Shown piece after piece: positions 39,169 through 48,115 of a stretch of DNA of 64,000 nucleotides. The stretch lies in the NCBI GenBank assembly GCA_946617585.1, contig CAMOKM010000001.1, positions 8,779 to 72,778 of the forward strand, written 5' to 3'. Origin of the DNA: an uncultured Lachnospiraceae bacterium. GTDB taxonomy: Bacteria > Bacillota > Clostridia > Lachnospirales > Lachnospiraceae. Positions within the stretch are counted from its first letter, which is position 1. Every line of letters starts with the position of its first letter. The notes under the pieces were generated by a model. That model was given only the letters and a program-made list of their open reading frames with translations. It did no database searches and was not told the origin of the DNA. The position numbers and the translations under genes are program-made.

Positions 39169-41172
39169 ATGGATAATAAGGGCAGTCATGTCTTTAAACT
39201 GCATTCGGAATATAAGCCTACAGGCGACCAGCCACAGGCGATAGAAGCGCTTGTAAACGGATTCAGGGAGGGCAATCAGGCGCAGACTCTTCTCGGGGTC
39301 ACGGGATCGGGCAAGACGTTTACCATGGCCAACGTGATCGCATCGCTGAATCTTCCGACGCTGATAATCAGCCATAACAAGACTCTCGCCGGACAATTGT
39401 ACGGCGAGATGAAGGAATTCTTCCCCGAGAACGCGGTGGAGTATTTTGTGTCCTACTATGATTATTATCAGCCCGAGGCATATGTCCCTTCATCTGACAC
39501 ATATATTGAGAAGGATTCATCGATAAACGATGAGATAGACAAGCTCCGTCTGTCGGCGACCGCAGCTCTTTCCGAAAGGAATGATGTGGTGGTGGTGGCC
39601 TCTGTATCCTGTATCTACGGCCTGGGATCTCCCGACGACTATATGCAGATGATGATCTCCCTGAGACCCGGGATGCAAAAAGACAGGGATGAGGTGATCC
39701 ACGAGCTGATCGGGATCAGATACGACAGGGCCGTGGCGGATTTTAAGCGTTCGACCTTCAGAGTGAACGGAGATGTGCTGGATATCTTCCCTGCGGAATC
39801 CGACGATACCGGTGTCAGAGTAGAGTTCTTCGGAGACGAGATAGACCGTATAGTGGAGTTCGACGTGCTCACGGGGCACCTGAGATCCGAGCTGAAGCAT
39901 GTGGCCATCTTTCCGGCATCCCACTATGTGGTCACGCAGGACAAGATGGAGAGAGGCATCGCCGAGATCGAGAAGGAGCTGAAAGAGCGAGTCGAATATT
40001 TCCGTTCCGAGGACAGGCTCATAGAGGCACAGAGGATATCCGAAAGAACGAACTTTGATATAGAAATGATGAGAGAGACAGGCTTCTGCTCGGGGATAGA
40101 GAACTATTCGAGACCTCTGTCCGGGAGGGCTCCGGGCTCTGCGCCCCTCACACTCATGGATTTCTTCCCGGACGACTATCTGCTGATAGTGGATGAGAGC
40201 CATATAACCATTCCCCAGATAGGCGGCATGTATAACGGCGATCAGGCCAGAAAGACCTCTTTGGTCGATTACGGATTCAGACTTCCTTCGGCAAAGGACA
40301 ACAGACCCCTGTCATTTGAAGAGTGGGAAGGACACCTGGACAAGATACTGTTCGTATCGGCTACTCCGGCCGAATACGAGGCAGAACACGAGCTGCTCCG
40401 TGCAGAGCAGATCATACGGCCTACGGGTCTGCTGGATCCTGAGATCTCGGTACGGCCTACGGAGGGTCAGGTGGATGATCTGGTGTCCGAGATCAACAAA
40501 GAGACGGCCAAAAAGGGAAAGATACTCGTCACGACCCTCACGAAACGTATGGCTGAGGATCTCACGGATTATCTCAGAGAGACGGGGATCAGGGTGAAGT
40601 ATCTTCATTCCGACATAGATACTCTCGAGCGGGCCCAGATCATAAGAGATATGCGCCTGGATGTATTTGATGTGCTGGTAGGCATCAACCTGCTGAGGGA
40701 GGGACTGGACATACCGGAGATATCTCTGGTGGCTATCATAGATGCCGACAAGGAGGGCTTCCTTCGCTCTGCCACATCGCTGATACAGACCGTGGGAAGA
40801 GCAGCCAGAAATGCCGAAGGACACGTGATAATGTATGCGGATACCGTCACGGGCTCCATGAAAGAGTGTATAGACGAAACAAACAGAAGACGAAAACTGC
40901 AAATGGAGTATAATGAGAAGAACGGTATCACCCCTCAGACCATAAAGAAAGCGGTCAGAGACCTGATATCCATCTCAAGATCTATCGCAAAGAGCGAATA
41001 CGAGCTCGAAAAGGATCCCGAATCAATGAGCAGAGATGAGCTGAAGAAGGTGATAGATAAGATCGAGAAGCAGATGAGGAAGGCGGCAGCAGAGCTGGAC
41101 TTCGAGACGGCAGCGATGCTGCGTGATAAGATGATAGAGCTTAAGCGTAATCTGATACAGGAGGAGAGATGA
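39169..41172 (+). CDS. uvrB: Excinuclease ABC subunit B
   Basis: [35 protein letters not shown] domain. Confidence 0.97.
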
Positions 41173-41957
41173 TGGGAAAGAAACTGTCTGTAGTCGTACC
41201 CACGTTCAATGAGGCCGGCAATGTGGCGGAGCTTGCCGCCCAGATAGGAGAGGCATTGAAGGGGGTGGATTATAATATCTGGTTCATAGATGACTCAAAT
41301 GACAATACGCCGGAGGTGCTGGAGGCACTGTGCAAAGAGGATGCGCATTGTCATTTCCATCACAGAGAGGGGGATCAGCAGACAGGGCTTGCGACGGCTG
41401 TGATAGAGGGCTTTCATATGGCGGACGGTGATTTCCTCGCCTGCATGGATGCCGATCTTCAGCACCCGCCCAAGGTGCTCCGTCCCATGTATGCCGCCAT
41501 GCTTTCCGGGGCAGACATCTGTGTGCCCTCAAGACTCATCAGGGGCGGCTCCGACGGCGGGCTGAACATAGTGCGCAAGGTGGTGTCAGGGACTGCCAGG
41601 TGGATGGGCAAATTTGCACTGTCTTCTCTCAGGAATATATCCGATCCCACCTCCGGGCTTTTCATGTTCAGAAAGGGGATGCTGGATGGGGCAGACCTCA
41701 GACCGATAGGCTGGAAGATCATGGTCGAAGTGCTGGCAATGTGCGAATACAGGCTCGTGATAGAGATACCATATGAATTCCACGACAGGAATGCGGGAGA
41801 ATCCAAGATATCGAAGAAGGTCTCCATGCAGTATATGGAACAGCTGAAAGACCTGAGAGGACGTGAGATACGTCACGACTCGGTGATCGTGACCAGATGG
41901 TCTCCGGCATTTACCGAATCCATGATCCGCAAGTATTGTCCGACAGAGGAAGTATGA
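41169..41957 (+). CDS. GT2 polyprenol-phosphate hexosyltransferase (DPM1/Ppm1-like)
   Basis: [34 protein letters not shown]. Confidence 0.85.
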
Positions 41958-44812
41958 AAAAGAAAGAAGCAGACATCAGGAAATTTATAAAGATAAGAGG
42001 GGCGAGAGAGCACAATCTGAAGTCTCTCTCGGTGGATATACCGAGGAATCAGCTGGTAGTGATGACAGGCTTGTCCGGATCGGGCAAGTCTTCTCTGGCT
42101 TTTGACACGATATATGCAGAGGGACAGCGACGGTATATGCAGTCACTGTCAAGCTATGCACGTATGTTCCTGGGACAGATGGACAAGCCGGACGTAGAAT
42201 CCATAGAAGGGCTCCCGCCCGCCATATCCATAGACCAGAAGTCCACAAACCGGAACCCGCGCTCCACGGTCGGTACGGTGACGGAGATATATGATTACCT
42301 GAGACTTCTCTATGCGAGGATAGGCATACCCCATTGCCCGGAATGCGGCAAGGTGATAGAGAGACAGACTGCAGATCAGATGGCGGATGCGCTGATGAAG
42401 CTTCCGGAGAGGACGAAGATACAGCTGCTGGCTCCGGTGGTAAGGGGCAAGAAGGGACGCCACGAGAAGGTATTGGAGAGGGCCAGGAAATCCGGATATG
42501 TCAGAGCCATCGTAGACGGATCTCAATATGATCTGTCTGAGGAGATAGAGCTCGATAAGAATATACGTCATTCTATCGATATCGTGGTAGACAGACTGAT
42601 AGTAAAGCAGGGTATAGAGACCCGGCTTGCGGATTCCATAGAGAACGTGCTGGAGATCTCCGATGGTCTGCTGAACGTGGATGTGGACGGCGGAAAAGAG
42701 ACCCTGGCTTTTTCAAACAGCTTTTCCTGTCCGGACTGCGGTATATCGATCCCTCCCATAGAGCCCAGGAGCTTTTCTTTCAACAATCCGTTCGGGGCCT
42801 GTCCCACCTGTGCAGGGCTGGGATACAAGATGGAATTCGATGAAGACCTGATGATCCCGGACAAGACACTGTCTTTCAATGAGGGCTGTGTGAGCTGCAT
42901 GGGATGGATGAACTCCAAGGATCCCGGGAGCTATTCACATGCCCTGCTGGAGGCACTGGCAAAAAAATACAGGTTTTCGCTGGATACCCCTTATGAAAAG
43001 CTTTCCGAAAAGGCAAAGGATATCTTTATTCACGGTACAGGCGGAGAAGCAGTAAAAGTCCACTACAAAGGTCAGCGTTCAGAGGGAGTGTATGAAGACG
43101 CTTTCGAGGGTCTGATAAAGAACATGGAACGCAGATACAGAGAAACCTTTTCGGACTCTGCCAAAGCGGAATACGAGCAGTATATGAGGATCTCTCCCTG
43201 CGAGACATGTAAAGGGCAGCGGCTGAAAAAGGAATCTCTGGCCGTCACGGTGGACGACAAGAACATATTTGAACTGACCGAAATGTCGGTAAAGCAGCTG
43301 CTGAAGTATTTTGATACCATACCGGAGTCTATCACCGAGCAGCAGCAGAGGATAGGCACACAGATAATAAAAGAGATTCATTCGCGGATCCGCTTCATGA
43401 ATGACGTGGGACTGGATTATCTCACTCTTTCCAGAGCGACGGGCACTCTTTCCGGAGGGGAGGCTCAGCGTATCAGGCTCGCCACGCAGATAGGCAGCGG
43501 TCTGGTCGGAGTGGCATATATCCTGGATGAGCCGTCCATAGGACTGCATCAAAGAGACAACGACAAGCTGCTGGCTACGCTCAGGCATCTGCGAGACCTC
43601 GGGAATACGCTGATCGTGGTGGAGCATGACGAGGATACCATGCTGGCGGCAGACCATATCATAGATATAGGACCGGGTGCCGGGATACGCGGCGGTGAGC
43701 TTGTAGCCGAGGGTACTGCGGATGAGATAATGAAGGTGAAGAAGTCGATCACCGGCAGATATCTGTCCGGGGAGCTGTCCATACCGGTGCCGAAGGAGAG
43801 AAGGAAGCCTGCCGGATGGATAGAGATCAGAAAGGCAAGAGAAAATAACCTCAAGAACACAGATGTCAGGATACCGCTGGGTGTGATGACCATAGTGACG
43901 GGGGTGTCCGGATCGGGCAAGTCTTCTCTGATAAACGAGATCCTGTTTAAGACAGCTGCAAAAAAGCTGAACCGCGCGCGTATCATACCGGGGGCGTCCG
44001 ACGGGATAAAGGGTCTGGAGGAGCTGGATAAAGTCATCAATATAGACCAGTCGCCCATCGGGAGGACACCGAGATCCAATCCGGCCACATATACGGGTGT
44101 ATTCGACCTGATCAGGGATCTTTTCGCGGGGACGCAGGAGGCACGTGCAAGAGGTTACAAGAAGGGCCGGTTCTCGTTTAACGTAAAGGGAGGACGATGC
44201 GAAGCCTGCAGCGGAGACGGCATAATAAAGATAGAGATGCATTTCCTGCCGGACGTGTTCGTACCCTGCGATGTATGCCACGGCAAGCGGTACAACAGAG
44301 AGACTCTCGATATCACCTATAAGGGCAGGAATATAGCCGATGTTCTGGACATGACGGTGGAGGAGGCCCTTGATTTCTTTGAGAATGTACCTTCGATAAG
44401 AAACAAGATCCAGACTCTCTATGATGTCGGGCTCGGATATGTAAAGCTGGGTCAGCCTTCCACAGAGCTTTCAGGAGGAGAGGCCCAGAGGATAAAGCTG
44501 GCAGCGGAGCTTTCGAGAAAGAGTACAGGAAGGACCCTGTACATCCTGGATGAGCCGACTACGGGTCTGCACTTCGATGATGTGAAGAAGCTCGTCACCA
44601 TCCTCCAGAGACTTGCCGATATGGGAAATACCGTGGTGGTGATAGAGCACAACCTGGATGTGATCAAATGCGGTGATTATATAGTTGATATGGGGCCGGA
44701 AGGCGGAGACGGCGGGGGTACAGTCGTAGCCTGCGGTACGCCGGAAGAGGTAGCAAAGGTAAAGAAAAGCTATACAGGGTACTACATAGCAAAGATGCTC
44801 GGAAAAAAATAA
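41954..44812 (+). CDS. uvrA: Excinuclease ABC subunit A
   Basis: [18 protein letters not shown], two ABC modules, zinc fingers; ATG 41954 overlaps the GT2 stop. Confidence 0.97.
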
Positions 44813-44826
44813 ATCAAAACAGGGGT

Positions 44827-44853
44827 TAAGAAAACCGGAAAAACTGCCGATGT
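44827..44853 (+). promoter_or_regulatory. Sigma28 (SigD/FliA)-type promoter
   Basis: TAAG-N15-GCCGATGT versus consensus TAAA-N15-GCCGATAW, upstream of flagellar rod genes. Confidence 0.65.
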
Positions 44854-44859
44854 AATATC

Positions 44860-44934
44860 TACATGGAAGTTTTCAGGCGCTCAGCGCTTTCATATATGCA
44901 CGGATGCAGAACACATACTGCATCCGTGTTTTTT
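44860..44934 (+). ncRNA. Candidate small RNA or attenuator leader with two CsrA-type GGA sites
   Basis: Lies between the sigma28 promoter and a terminator; ACATGGAAGT (44861-70) and GCACGGATGC (44898-907). Confidence 0.35.
44898..44934 (+). terminator. Intrinsic terminator
   Basis: GCACGGATGCAG / CTGCATCCGTGT plus TTTTT. Confidence 0.8.
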
Positions 44935-45010
44935 GATTGAAAGTTTTCCGGTTTCGTGGCAATATATAGTATTGGCATTTTGTTGGCAGAAATAGCGAAA
45001 CGAGGAAAAT

Positions 45011-46009
45011 ATGAGCGGAACGGATATAGGAATAGATCTGGGCACGGCCAGTGTGCTGGTGTATATCAGAGGCAAAGGGGTGGTCCTCAAGGAGCCGTCG
45101 GTCGTAGCCTTTGACAGAGATACGAATAAGATAATGGCCATTGGTGAGGAAGCCCGTCTGATGCTTGGGCGTACTCCCGGAAATATCGTAGCGATAAGGC
45201 CCATGAGACAGGGTGTCATCTCGAACTACACTGTCACGGAGAAGATGCTGAAGTACTTCATACAGAAGGCTGTAGGCAAGAGAACGTTCAGGAAGCCCAG
45301 AGTGTGCGTGGGAGTGCCGTCTGCGGCATCCGAAGTCGAGAGGAAGGCCGTGGAGGATGCGGCATACCAGGCGGGAGCAAGAGATGTAAAGATCATCGAG
45401 GAGCCGCTGGCAGCGGCCATCGGAGCCGGGATAGATATCATAAAGGCCTGCGGCAATATGGTCGTGGATATAGGAGGCGGGACCTCCGACATAGCGGTCA
45501 TATCCCTGGGCGGACCGGTGGAGTCGACATCCATAAAGGTGGCAGGCGACGACTTTGACGAGGCTATCGTCAGATACATGAGAAAGAAGCACAATCTTCT
45601 GATAGGCGAGCCGACGGCTGAGGATCTGAAGATCAGTATAGGAGCGGTATTCAAGCAGCCGGAGGTCGACTACATGGATGTAAGGGGCAGAAACCTGCTG
45701 ACGGGACTCCCGGTGACAGTCAAGGTGTCGTCGGAGGAGACGGAAGAGGCCCTGAGAGAGTCGACATCCCAGATCATAGAGGCCATACACAGCGTATTGG
45801 AGCGCACGCCTCCGGAGCTAGCGGCAGATATTGCATCCAGAGGGATAGTGCTCACGGGCGGAGGAGCGATGCTCAGAGGCCTGGAGGAGCTGATAACGGA
45901 AAAGACAGGTATCAACACCATGACGGCAGAGGATCCCATGACCGCCGTGGCGGTGGGTACGGGTAAATACGTAGACTTCATAGCGGGATATCAGGAAGAG
46001 GATAATTAA
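45011..46009 (+). CDS. mreB: MreB-family actin homolog (Mbl-like)
   Basis: GIDLGT, EPSVVA, VDIGGGTSD, LTGGGA. Confidence 0.92.
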   Translation: MSGTDIGIDLGTASVLVYIRGKGVVLKEPSVVAFDRDTNKIMAIGEEARLMLGRTPGNIVAIRPMRQGVISNYTVTEKMLKYFIQKAVGKRTFRKPRVCVGVPSAASEVERKAVEDAAYQAGARDVKIIEEPLAAAIGAGIDIIKACGNMVVDIGGGTSDIAVISLGGPVESTSIKVAGDDFDEAIVRYMRKKHNLLIGEPTAEDLKISIGAVFKQPEVDYMDVRGRNLLTGLPVTVKVSSEETEEALRESTSQIIEAIHSVLERTPPELAADIASRGIVLTGGGAMLRGLEELITEKTGINTMTAEDPMTAVAVGTGKYVDFIAGYQEEDN

Positions 46010-46011
46010 GC

Positions 46012-46812
46012 ATGGTAAAGGGGCTCTACACAGCACACAGCGCAATGATCAACGAACAGCACAGGATGGACACGATGACCAACAACCTGGCTAACGTGTC
46101 GACCACCGGGTACAAGAAGGAGGGTGCTACTTCTCAGACCTTTGCGGACGCGCTCGCAGTAAAGCTCAAGGATTCTTCCGAGTGGTATCTGTCCAGAAGA
46201 CTCGGCAATATGCAGCCGGGAGTTAAGATAGGTGAGAACTATACAGATTGGTCCGAGGGCGGCTTCAGAGGTACGGACAACACCTTTGACCTCGCACTTT
46301 CGGATTCCGGATTCTTCCGCATAGAATTCCAGGATAAAAACGGCAACGTGAGCGAGAAGTACACGAGAGACGGATCCTTCACTCTGACCAAAGAAGGGGT
46401 ACTGGTGACCAAGGACGGAGACTTTGTCCTTGACTCCAACGGCAACCACATCCAGCTGGATCCCATGCAGGATACCACCATTGACAGACAGGGAAACATC
46501 ACTCAGGGGGCCAACAATCAGATCATAGCGACGATAGGAGTCGTCGATTTCGAGAGAAACGAAGAGGGCACGGACTATTATTATCTGGAAAAGTACGGAG
46601 AGAATATGTGGCAGACGGTGGACGGAGCCACGGAGATCCCCTCGAATGCACAGATATACTCCGGCTATCTTGAGCAGTCCAATGTGGAGACAGTTCAGGA
46701 GATGGTCAATATGATAGCGATAAACAGGCAATATGAGATAAACCAGAAAGTGATACAGACTATGGACACGAGTCTGGAAACGGCTGTGAATCAGCTCGGT
46801 AAACTGAGATAA
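46012..46812 (+). CDS. flgF: Flagellar hook-basal body rod protein (FlgF/FlhO-like)
   Basis: NNLANVSTTGYK, YTRDGSF, LEQSNV..V.EM. Confidence 0.8.
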   Translation: MVKGLYTAHSAMINEQHRMDTMTNNLANVSTTGYKKEGATSQTFADALAVKLKDSSEWYLSRRLGNMQPGVKIGENYTDWSEGGFRGTDNTFDLALSDSGFFRIEFQDKNGNVSEKYTRDGSFTLTKEGVLVTKDGDFVLDSNGNHIQLDPMQDTTIDRQGNITQGANNQIIATIGVVDFERNEEGTDYYYLEKYGENMWQTVDGATEIPSNAQIYSGYLEQSNVETVQEMVNMIAINRQYEINQKVIQTMDTSLETAVNQLGKLR

Positions 46813-46831
46813 GAAAGGGAGGGGTGTACTG

Positions 46832-47656
46832 ATGGTTAGATCGCTTTGGACCGCAGCAACTGGAATGATAGCCCAGCAGAACAATGTGGATACTATCGCA
46901 AACAATCTTGCCAATGTGAACACGACAGGGTATAAGACGGAGACGAATGAATTCAAGAGCCTCCTGTATCAGACACTCCAGACAAAGACCACTACAGCTC
47001 ATGCGGTGGAGAATAAGCCCATAGGAGCACAGGTAGGACTGGGTGTGAGAAATGCTTCCATCACGTCACAGTTTACCAACGGCGCTCTGCTGGAGTCAGA
47101 GAGTGCTACCAGCTTTGCCATTCAGGGCAAAGGTTTCTTTGCGGTAAGGGGAAATGACGGGCAGACATATTATACGAGAAACGGCGATTTCAACTTCATG
47201 ATGAACGCCCAGGGAGGACTCACCCTCGCGAACTCCGACGGTCTCCCGGTACTGAATACGAACGGTCAGCCGATCACACTGAACGGGAACTACATCGCCA
47301 ACCGGGTCGAGGTGGATGCCACGGGACAGCTCATGTATCCTGATGCTCAGAACAACCCGCAGCCCATTGCCGGGATGCAGATAGGCATGACGCAGTTCCA
47401 GAATCCCAAGGGCCTTACCAAGGAGGGAGATTCCCTGTATGCGGTTTCTGCCGCATCCGGACAGCCGATGAACGAAGCGACCAACAACAACCTGGAGAAA
47501 TCCGTGATCAGACAGGGATATCTGGAGGGATCCAATGTCCAGGTTGCCGATGAGATGGTCAACCTGATCGTGGCACAGAGAGCTTACGAGCTTAACTCCA
47601 AAGCCATAACCACAACCGATGACATGATGCAGACAGCGAACCAGCTGAAGAGATGA
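46832..47656 (+). CDS. flgG: Flagellar distal rod protein FlgG (FlhP-like)
   Basis: ANNLANVNTTGYK, YTRNGDF, QGYLEGSNV..EMVNLIVAQRAYE.NSK. Confidence 0.88.
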   Translation: MVRSLWTAATGMIAQQNNVDTIANNLANVNTTGYKTETNEFKSLLYQTLQTKTTTAHAVENKPIGAQVGLGVRNASITSQFTNGALLESESATSFAIQGKGFFAVRGNDGQTYYTRNGDFNFMMNAQGGLTLANSDGLPVLNTNGQPITLNGNYIANRVEVDATGQLMYPDAQNNPQPIAGMQIGMTQFQNPKGLTKEGDSLYAVSAASGQPMNEATNNNLEKSVIRQGYLEGSNVQVADEMVNLIVAQRAYELNSKAITTTDDMMQTANQLKR

Positions 47657-47677
47657 TAGGCTGAGAGCAGACACGAT

Positions 47678-48115
47678 ATGGATATAGACAGCAGTTATCT
47701 GACAAATCTATCAAGCCAGGCGGTTTCCGAGGCCAATGCGTCAAAGCTGAAGAGCACGCTCTCGAGCATTTCTGAGAACGGCAGCAGGGTAAAGGCCAAG
47801 GGAAGCGGTGTAAACTCGGCTGAAGAGGAAAAGCTTCTCGATGCATGCAAGCAGTTCGAGAGTTATTTTGTCGAGCAGATGTTCAAGGAGATGATGAAGA
47901 CCGTTCCCAAGGATGCCCTTGACACGGGGTCCAACAGCATGCTTGTGGACTATTACAAGGATAATCTTGTGAAGGAATATGCTGCAGAGGCTACGGAAAA
48001 GGAGAGTCTCGGACTCGCTCAGATGCTTTATGAGCAGATGAAGCGTAATATCGGTATCACTCCGGAGGAGGCAGATGCAAAAGCGGCAGCGGCATCGGGC
48101 TCCGGAAAAAAGTAA
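47678..48115 (+). CDS. flgJ: Rod-binding protein (FlgJ N-domain only)
   Basis: ACKQFESYF.EQMFKEM, GLAQMLYEQM. Confidence 0.8.
   Translation: MDIDSSYLTNLSSQAVSEANASKLKSTLSSISENGSRVKAKGSGVNSAEEEKLLDACKQFESYFVEQMFKEMMKTVPKDALDTGSNSMLVDYYKDNLVKEYAAEATEKESLGLAQMLYEQMKRNIGITPEEADAKAAAASGSGKK

Follow-up and report, generated by a model that had tools for sequence, protein, structure and literature searches.

A candidate CsrA-responsive leader RNA with a sigma-28 promoter ahead of the mreB-flgF-flgG-flgJ operon of Lachnospiraceae

The CsrA of Firmicutes is regarded as having little more than a single task, the repression of flagellin translation, and as being checked by the protein FliW, not by RNAs (PMC6546359). 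According to the Bacillus subtilis model, FliW holds CsrA during flagellin export, and CsrA is free for as long as the cell retains its flagellin (PMC7652899). A joint action of FliW and a small RNA in any species ‘remains to be determined’ according to a 2020 review (PMC7652899). The present analysis concerns 64,000 nucleotides (nt) of DNA from an uncultured rumen Lachnospiraceae bacterium with a 2.04-Mb genome; this whole stretch is called the window, and positions given without a locus name refer to it. Between uvrA and an mreB-flgF-flgG-flgJ operon, the window holds a short element with a sigma-28 promoter, a 5′ GGA site, and an intrinsic terminator whose stem is opened by a second, conserved GGA site (site 1). 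The element may encode a sigma-28 (SigD/FliA)-dependent leader RNA in which binding of CsrA to the terminator arm permits read-through into the operon. This is the preferred reading; it is tentative and stops short of being probable.

A close described system is the hag leader of the Hag-FliW-CsrA switch of B. subtilis. By the summaries of Yakhnin 2007 and Mukherjee 2011 in PMC7652899 and PMC13443453, it resembles the element in being a sigma-D/sigma-28 transcript with two GGA sites, one of them in a hairpin loop. The host encodes FliW and CsrA in neighbouring genes. In three related genomes, flagellin leaders behind sigma-28 promoters contain a GC-ANGGAA-GC hairpin some 12 nt ahead of the Shine-Dalgarno sequence, which is the layout described for B. 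subtilis hag. Their hexaloop is identical to the apical ANGGAA loop of the element in related genomes, and this motif likeness to the flagellin leaders suggests CsrA as the ligand. Lachnospiraceae CsrAs repress the B. subtilis hag leader (PMC13443453). Unlike in hag, the sites of the element lie at least 100 nt upstream of mreB. None of them overlaps a Shine-Dalgarno sequence or start codon: they end at 44907, mreB starts at 45011, and the terminator and a further promoter lie in between. The conserved site overlaps the intrinsic terminator, and therefore the predicted control is one of transcription, not of translation.

The CsrB, CsrC and RsmZ RNAs (Rfam clan CL00106) are likewise non-coding, present GGA in hairpin contexts and end in an intrinsic terminator. 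They differ in the number of sites. Sponges of this kind hold about 7–22 GGA motifs, mostly in loops, and CsrB/CsrC hold 13–22 (PMC6546359), whereas the element has two here and one to five in relatives, usually 1–3 and five only in locus L011. The element also differs by its sigma-28 promoter and by its host, a Firmicute with FliW, a setting from which no such RNAs are described (PMC6546359, PMC7652899). Rfam models do not recognise it: no family was found at the element in the window and 10 canonical loci, and a weak match to the CsrC model was discarded at 15.7 bits (E = 0.036), far under the family cut-off of 61 bits.

In the Escherichia coli pgaA leader, CsrA sites also lie over a leader hairpin. 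CsrA remodels this hairpin and alters termination; its binding prevents the hairpin and promotes Rho-dependent termination (PMC7652899). Binding to the element would similarly remodel the RNA and change elongation. Since the hairpin of the element is itself the intrinsic terminator, binding is predicted to prevent termination, the opposite of pgaA, and Rho would not be involved. Protein-dependent attenuators of Bacillus (HutP, PyrR, TRAP, LicT/SacY) have a leader terminator and a protein site over a terminator or antiterminator strand. The element has the same anatomy: a terminator separates its promoter from the first gene, and a candidate protein site overlaps a terminator strand. Unlike these attenuators, it has no alternative antiterminator helix, because only some 5 nt of RNA would precede the site. 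The median distance from the −10 box to the start of site 1 is 13 nt, too short for such a helix, so any control has to work through the terminator itself. CsrA is the presumed protein, and the signal would be the state of flagellar assembly, not a metabolite.

Short RNAs from late flagellar promoters near flagellar genes are known as MotR, FliX, UhpU and FlgO of E. coli (PMC10578931) and as a FliA-dependent small RNA of Campylobacter jejuni (PMC11187230). These RNAs act by base-pairing and have no sequence relation to the element, whose conserved features are GGA motifs resembling protein sites. The sequence-only reading had held that neither a CsrA sponge of the late flagellar phase nor a CsrA-dependent attenuator is described in Firmicutes. 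For the link to CsrA this stands: the literature searched yielded no description of the element, nor of a CsrA-linked sigma-28 small RNA in Firmicutes. Sigma-28-dependent small RNAs as such are not new, given the E. coli and Campylobacter examples. Sigma-28 promoters, CsrA sites and protein-controlled terminators are each of known kinds; new are their combination and its occurrence in a FliW-bearing Firmicute.

The sigma-28 promoter proposed from the sequence, TAAG-N15-GCCGATGT, was confirmed and is the only piece that exceeds chance within the window alone. The pattern TAAR-N15-GCCGATRW has one match in the window against 0.06 expected. A strict sigma-28 pattern with a spacer of 14–16 nt occurs three times in the whole genome, and the other two matches lie ahead of a flagellin gene and of flgM. 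In addition, flaG-fliD, which adjoins fliW-csrA, has a looser match in front of it. Relatives were collected by searching the DNA of 40 related genomes and by a protein-seeded scan across public genomes, which together gave 109 mreB loci (103 distinct), among them loci of Acetatifactor species and of Lachnospiraceae bacterium 10-1. The consensus of 55 relatives is T.AAG, 15 nt and CCGATA. CCGAT is invariant in relatives, and the −35 T.AAG is kept at 85–98% with matching spacing, although the loci were picked without using the −35 box. This consensus agrees with that of Butyrivibrio sigma-28 promoters (PMC3720852). The promoter has the traits of its class, a TAAA-like −35 and a GCCGATAT-like −10 box about 15 nt apart, and looks like a genuine sigma-28 promoter. 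Its position places the likely transcription start at about 44860–44862. The matching sigma factor is encoded in the genome (FliA_WhiG, 267.9 bits; cut-off 189.6).

Two CsrA sites had been proposed in the sequence-only reading, CTACATGGAAGT and ATGCACGGATGC. Both are present and each fits RUACARGGAUGU, the consensus from in vitro selection (SELEX), at 9 of 12 positions. A second copy of ATGCACGGATGC was observed at 25060–25071, with neither promoter nor terminator context; the word alone can therefore arise by chance. From the window alone, the CsrA idea has very little behind it, and a GGA site becomes meaningful only through its conservation in relatives. The two sites differ in this respect. 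The site in the terminator arm is conserved: the exact word GCANGGAYGC, GCACGGATGC in the window, was found on the sense strand of 64 of the 103 distinct mreB-upstream regions (400 nt each), and its columns are invariant in alignments A1 and A2. Its density upstream of mreB is 1.56e-3 per nt, compared with 8.1e-6 per nt in the other 988 kb of these loci (8 copies, the chance level), an enrichment of about 190-fold at this position. An NCCGATRN box lies at most 75 nt upstream of the word in 55 of the 64 loci. The host genome has 56 copies of the word, and only the one at site 1 sits in a terminator arm.

The 5′ site is clade-specific. It persists as ACAKGGAMG, 11 nt past the −10 box, among the closest relatives (L004, L005, L007, L009 and L012), which share the window layout of a 5′ site and a stem site. 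The small GC hairpin, also part of the sequence-only reading, is present at 44875–44889 and is not conserved beyond L004. In most other genera, the 5′ site is replaced by an apical-loop site: the commonest form, found in Acetatifactor and others, combines the stem site with an inner tip hairpin CGG-ANGGAA-CCG, so that the second site of most relatives is the ANGGAA hexaloop at the hairpin tip. Minimal forms (L006, L010, L014, L015 and L036) have the stem site as their only GGA, starting 7 nt past the −10 box. In every variant, the word of site 1 forms the 5′ basal strand of the hairpin and a U tract follows. GCA-NGGA-YGC is able to form a mini-hairpin of 3 base pairs (bp), the ANGGAA hexaloop of relatives is closed by CGG/CCG, and the sites are spaced by about 15–40 nt. 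A CsrA-binding RNA is expected to have GGA in an A(N)GGA context, placed in a short hairpin loop or unpaired, and usually two such sites at a distance of 10–60 nt, and the element qualifies as a candidate on these grounds of sequence and structure. An expanded copy in L011 (1644–1758), with five GGA motifs between promoter and terminator, is the most sponge-like one found.

That the second site is also the 5′ arm of a terminator ending at 44934 was confirmed by a terminator scan and by folding, which agree on the stem 44898–44929. The 79-nt RNA has a folding energy of −28.9 kcal/mol (z = −4.8 relative to shuffles), and covariance model R1 matches 44892–44934 with 29.2 bits (E = 1.6e-4). A GC-rich hairpin is followed by a U tract, as in intrinsic terminators, and the stem is kept through compensatory changes. 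No T run follows the hairpin on the reverse strand; the terminator is therefore one-directional. RNAalifold predicted 17 pairs for 24 canonical copies, 11 of them with compensatory changes. For 49 copies, in an alignment fitted to the model, the paired share of cells is 94.9% and changes on both sides are seen in 14 of the 17 pairs, which none of 500 shuffles equals. The alignment of relatives suggested in the sequence-only reading thus showed a covarying stem with an unchanging GGA side. On the 5′ strand, site 1 has an unvarying G, G and A whose partners alternate between C and U (a C even stands opposite the A in L007 and L009), and the neighbouring stem pairs vary on both sides. The 5′ strand is therefore constrained in sequence beyond the need for pairing.

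Table 1. Features of the element and its surroundings in the window
Feature	Position	Strand	Basis and remarks
uvrA (context)	41897–44812	+	stop TAA 44810–44812; Pfam UvrA_inter, UvrA_DNA-bind, ABC_tran
Sigma-28 −35 element TTAAG	44826–44830	+	TAAG = 44827–44830; 14 nt after uvrA end (44812)
Sigma-28 −10 element GCCGATGT	44846–44853	+	15-nt spacer after TAAG
5′ GGA site CTACATGGAAGT	44859–44870	+	GGA 44865–44867; CsrA-like, clade-specific, at RNA 5′ end
Small GC hairpin AGGCGC-TCA-GCGCTT	44875–44889	+	fold; only here and in L004
Second site ATGCACGGATGC	44896–44907	+	GGA 44902–44904; last ten bases open terminator stem
Conserved site 1 GCACGGATGC (GCANGGAYGC)	44898–44907	+	GGA 44902–44904; in terminator 5′ arm
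Intrinsic terminator	44898–44934	+	12-bp stem 44898–44909/44918–44929, loop 44910–44917 (8 nt), T run 44929–44934
Likely housekeeping (sigma-A type) operon promoter, predicted	44937–44965	+	TTGAAA 44937–44942, TG 44957–44958, CAATAT 44960–44965
Downstream operon mreB-flgF-flgG-flgJ	45011–48115	+	Pfam matches
mreB/mbl paralogue	45011–46009	+	Pfam MreB_Mbl
flgF-like	46012–46812	+	Pfam Flg_bb_rod, Flg_bbr_C
flgG-like	46832–47656	+	Pfam Flg_bb_rod, Flg_bbr_C
Rod-binding FlgJ-like	47678–48115	+	Pfam Rod-binding

The element is a single-copy neighbour of mreB-flgF. Searches with R1 found exactly one copy in each of five canonical genomes and no copy at another place in five genomes whose mreB-upstream region lacks the element. 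In a blind scan with one genome per genus for 150 genera of the family, all six strong hits lay directly upstream of mreB-flgF, and among 150 genomes across the order, the sole strong hit fell in the same family. A class-level look at 29 mreB loci did not show the module outside the family; the mreB-flgF linkage itself is widespread in Clostridia. Wherever an element-bearing locus has enough sequence, mreB is followed by flgF (61 of 61). uvrA lies upstream in 61 of 72 element-bearing loci, ending 14–60 nt away, and the 11 loci without uvrA keep the element. The element thus belongs to the mreB-flgF side, and the mundane alternative of the sequence-only reading, a hairpin that only terminates uvrA, is disfavoured. 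Weak R1 hits elsewhere were set aside (L118, L125, L126, L128, L159–L161 and, at operon 3′ ends, L075, L083, L085 and L095); the eight inspected ones, all but L159–L161, are plain terminators without site 1. In several loci of the Acetatifactor type (L045, L048, L052, L053, L055, L065 and L074) the hairpin is lost, and some of them retain a sigma-28-like box (TCCGATGC, GCCGAAAT) directly before the housekeeping promoter; the element was therefore lost repeatedly within the family.

csrA, fliW and fliA, whose presence had been named as a check, are all encoded in the host genome. Evidence at the RNA level came from assembled metatranscriptome contigs. Contigs from RNA libraries of two different studies cross the termination point into mreB (44872–46230 and 44884–45082), which is compatible with read-through from a start near 44860. 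The missing contig cover over the 3′ part of uvrA (44002–44809) was not used for the start site, since such contigs prove nothing by absence.

The preferred reading combines these features in one mechanism. A CsrA-type site, GCANGGAYGC, is placed in the 5′ strand of the base of the terminator stem. Some tens of nucleotides from it is a second GGA site, at the RNA 5′ end in the host and in the apical ANGGAA loop in most relatives. Site 1 would leave the polymerase first. A free CsrA dimer could then take site 1 and the second site before the 3′ arm exists. Intrinsic termination requires the basal stem pairs next to the U tract. Occupancy of site 1 would remove these 6–10 basal pairs, and CsrA-dependent read-through is therefore favoured: the pairs beside the U tract would be blocked and the polymerase would continue into the rod genes. 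Once FliW holds CsrA, after completion of the hook-basal body in the B. subtilis model, the hairpin would form and only a short RNA of about 55–75 nt would be made, which may also retain some CsrA. Read-through would thus add rod-gene transcription to the housekeeping output only while CsrA is free, and may confine transcription of the rod genes from the late promoter to cells that still need basal bodies. CsrA binding and the effect of CsrA on termination are predictions within this reading, and are as tentative as the reading as a whole.

Several observations weigh against it. csrA is found in 22 of 25 genomes with the element and also in 22 of 25 without it, and therefore co-occurrence does not discriminate. 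The consensus fit of both GGA sites is at chance level in the window, with 224 such matches where about 149 are expected. The bridging contigs are assemblies; starts, strand and level cannot be read from them, and DNA may be included. All of site 1 is paired within a stable stem, so that binding must win a kinetic race. A likely housekeeping promoter separates the terminator from mreB in at least 40 of the 64 relatives with the element (TTGAAA or ATGAAA, 16–18 nt, TATAAT). It is near-consensus in most relatives, which makes read-through dispensable for the operon; in the genome of the window itself, its −10 box is weak. The conserved synteny could also hold an independent small-RNA gene in place.

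The main rival takes up this last point. The sponge of the sequence-only reading has 1–3 sites and fits the CsrB type poorly; in a reduced form, it survives as a stand-alone sigma-28 small RNA of about 55–75 nt. This RNA would act in trans as a CsrA decoy or sponge and help FliW to relieve flagellin repression once sigma-28 is active; the terminator would do no more than end the RNA, and read-through would be incidental. The apical ANGGAA loop, the same as in the flagellin leaders, would be exposed in the finished hairpin of most relatives, but minimal forms expose no GGA and the sole universally conserved site is buried in the stem. The five motifs of L011 and the weak CsrC match speak for a decoy, the latter diminished by its distance from the cut-off, and the low number of sites compared with CsrB/CsrC speaks against it. 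A titration of CsrA by an mRNA has been described for Campylobacter flaA (PMC4894983). The operon owns a promoter downstream of the terminator, yet every copy of the element found is next to mreB-flgF and points the same way. A decoy is a possible but unlikely explanation.

Somewhat further back stands a role of CsrA or another RNA-binding protein with a different outcome, such as a stabilised hairpin with more termination or protection of the 5′ end from ribonuclease, or a small RNA that acts by base-pairing. Site 1 lies a few nucleotides from the predicted 5′ end, and CsrA is known to protect flhDC mRNA by binding near its 5′ end (PMC7652899). A site within a stem strand would be unbindable unless the stem opens. 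For base-pairing, the sigma-28/FliA-dependent RNAs of E. coli and C. jejuni are precedents (PMC10578931, PMC11187230). As a seed for pairing with ribosome-binding sites, however, G-rich GGA loops would be unusual. Taken together, such outcomes are rather improbable.

An ordinary uvrA terminator that insulates the operon promoter, with a relic or minor sigma-28 promoter and a GGA word conserved for reasons other than CsrA, would suit the short distance to uvrA in most loci, the abundance of GGA-containing 12-mers of like quality and a possibly ancestral promoter, given the terminator-less −10 box before mreB in other families, but it is very improbable in view of the loci that hold the element without uvrA, the ten-base word fixed on one strand of an otherwise freely covarying stem, the enrichment of this word at its position and the −35 and −10 boxes kept where the surrounding spacer no longer aligns.

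If CsrA-dependent read-through is correct, the CsrA regulon would extend to the rod genes, and control of intrinsic termination would join the mechanisms of CsrA. Rod genes behind a late promoter are a known puzzle for flhO and flhP in B. subtilis (PMC5540618), and the mbl-flgF-flgG-flgJ locus of gut Lachnospiraceae is unexplained (PMC3720852). The element would explain how rod genes with a late promoter are matched to the state of assembly, would give a function to this locus and may link the flagellum's state of assembly with rod-gene transcription. A wider claim is put forward with considerable doubt: the element would be the first intrinsic terminator directly controlled by CsrA, the Hag-FliW-CsrA checkpoint would report the assembly state to the distal-rod genes (flgF/flgG = flhO/flhP), and the product would double as a CsrA-binding RNA, a case of a FliW-type system and such an RNA acting together within one organism. 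The element is short, sharply defined and present in cultured strains (Lachnospiraceae bacterium 10-1; Acetatifactor muris, here from a metagenome-assembled genome), and is therefore directly testable.

Further sigma-28-type promoters were observed in the genome of the window (G000) at C98:2070–2044 (−), C42:394–367 (−) and C105:952–978 (+), before flgM, the flagellin gene and flaG-fliD. Each of the three leaders has GGA motifs, and CsrA may therefore target more late flagellar transcripts than flagellin. The flgM leader contains GCAAA-CGGAU-UUUGC and a GGA adjoining the Shine-Dalgarno sequence. Other families of the order have a sigma-28 −10 box right next to the ribosome-binding site of mreB, and the terminator is lacking; outside the family, a −10-like box CCGATAA or CGATAT lies 10–25 nt before the mreB start with no terminator (L017, L019, L028 and L030; L169, L186, L187 and L189). 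The flagellar-linked MreB paralogue therefore looks like a member of the sigma-28 regulon. In L168 (G284), about 130–90 nt upstream of mreB, a −10 box TCCGATAT lies within the 5′ arm of the uvrA terminator (GGGGATATCC...GGATATCCCC, then TTTT). A sigma-28 transcript would therefore hold only the 3′ arm and would not terminate.

Some observations concern the surroundings. The host genome encodes a second MreB paralogue on contig C3. A 25-codon frame from ATG 44863 to TGA 44938–44940 was discarded, as its ATG is missing in L004, the nearest relative. Upstream, a family-2 glycosyltransferase gene (41169–41957) lies between uvrB (39169–41172) and uvrA (open reading frame from 41897). It overlaps the listed frames of both and is an unusual insert for a uvrB-uvrA pair. 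In the metagenome-assembled genome of Acetatifactor muris, a Clostridiales-1 RNA (RF01699) was detected downstream of the flg operon (L064:5235–5359, +) with 48.2 bits, just above the cut-off of 48.
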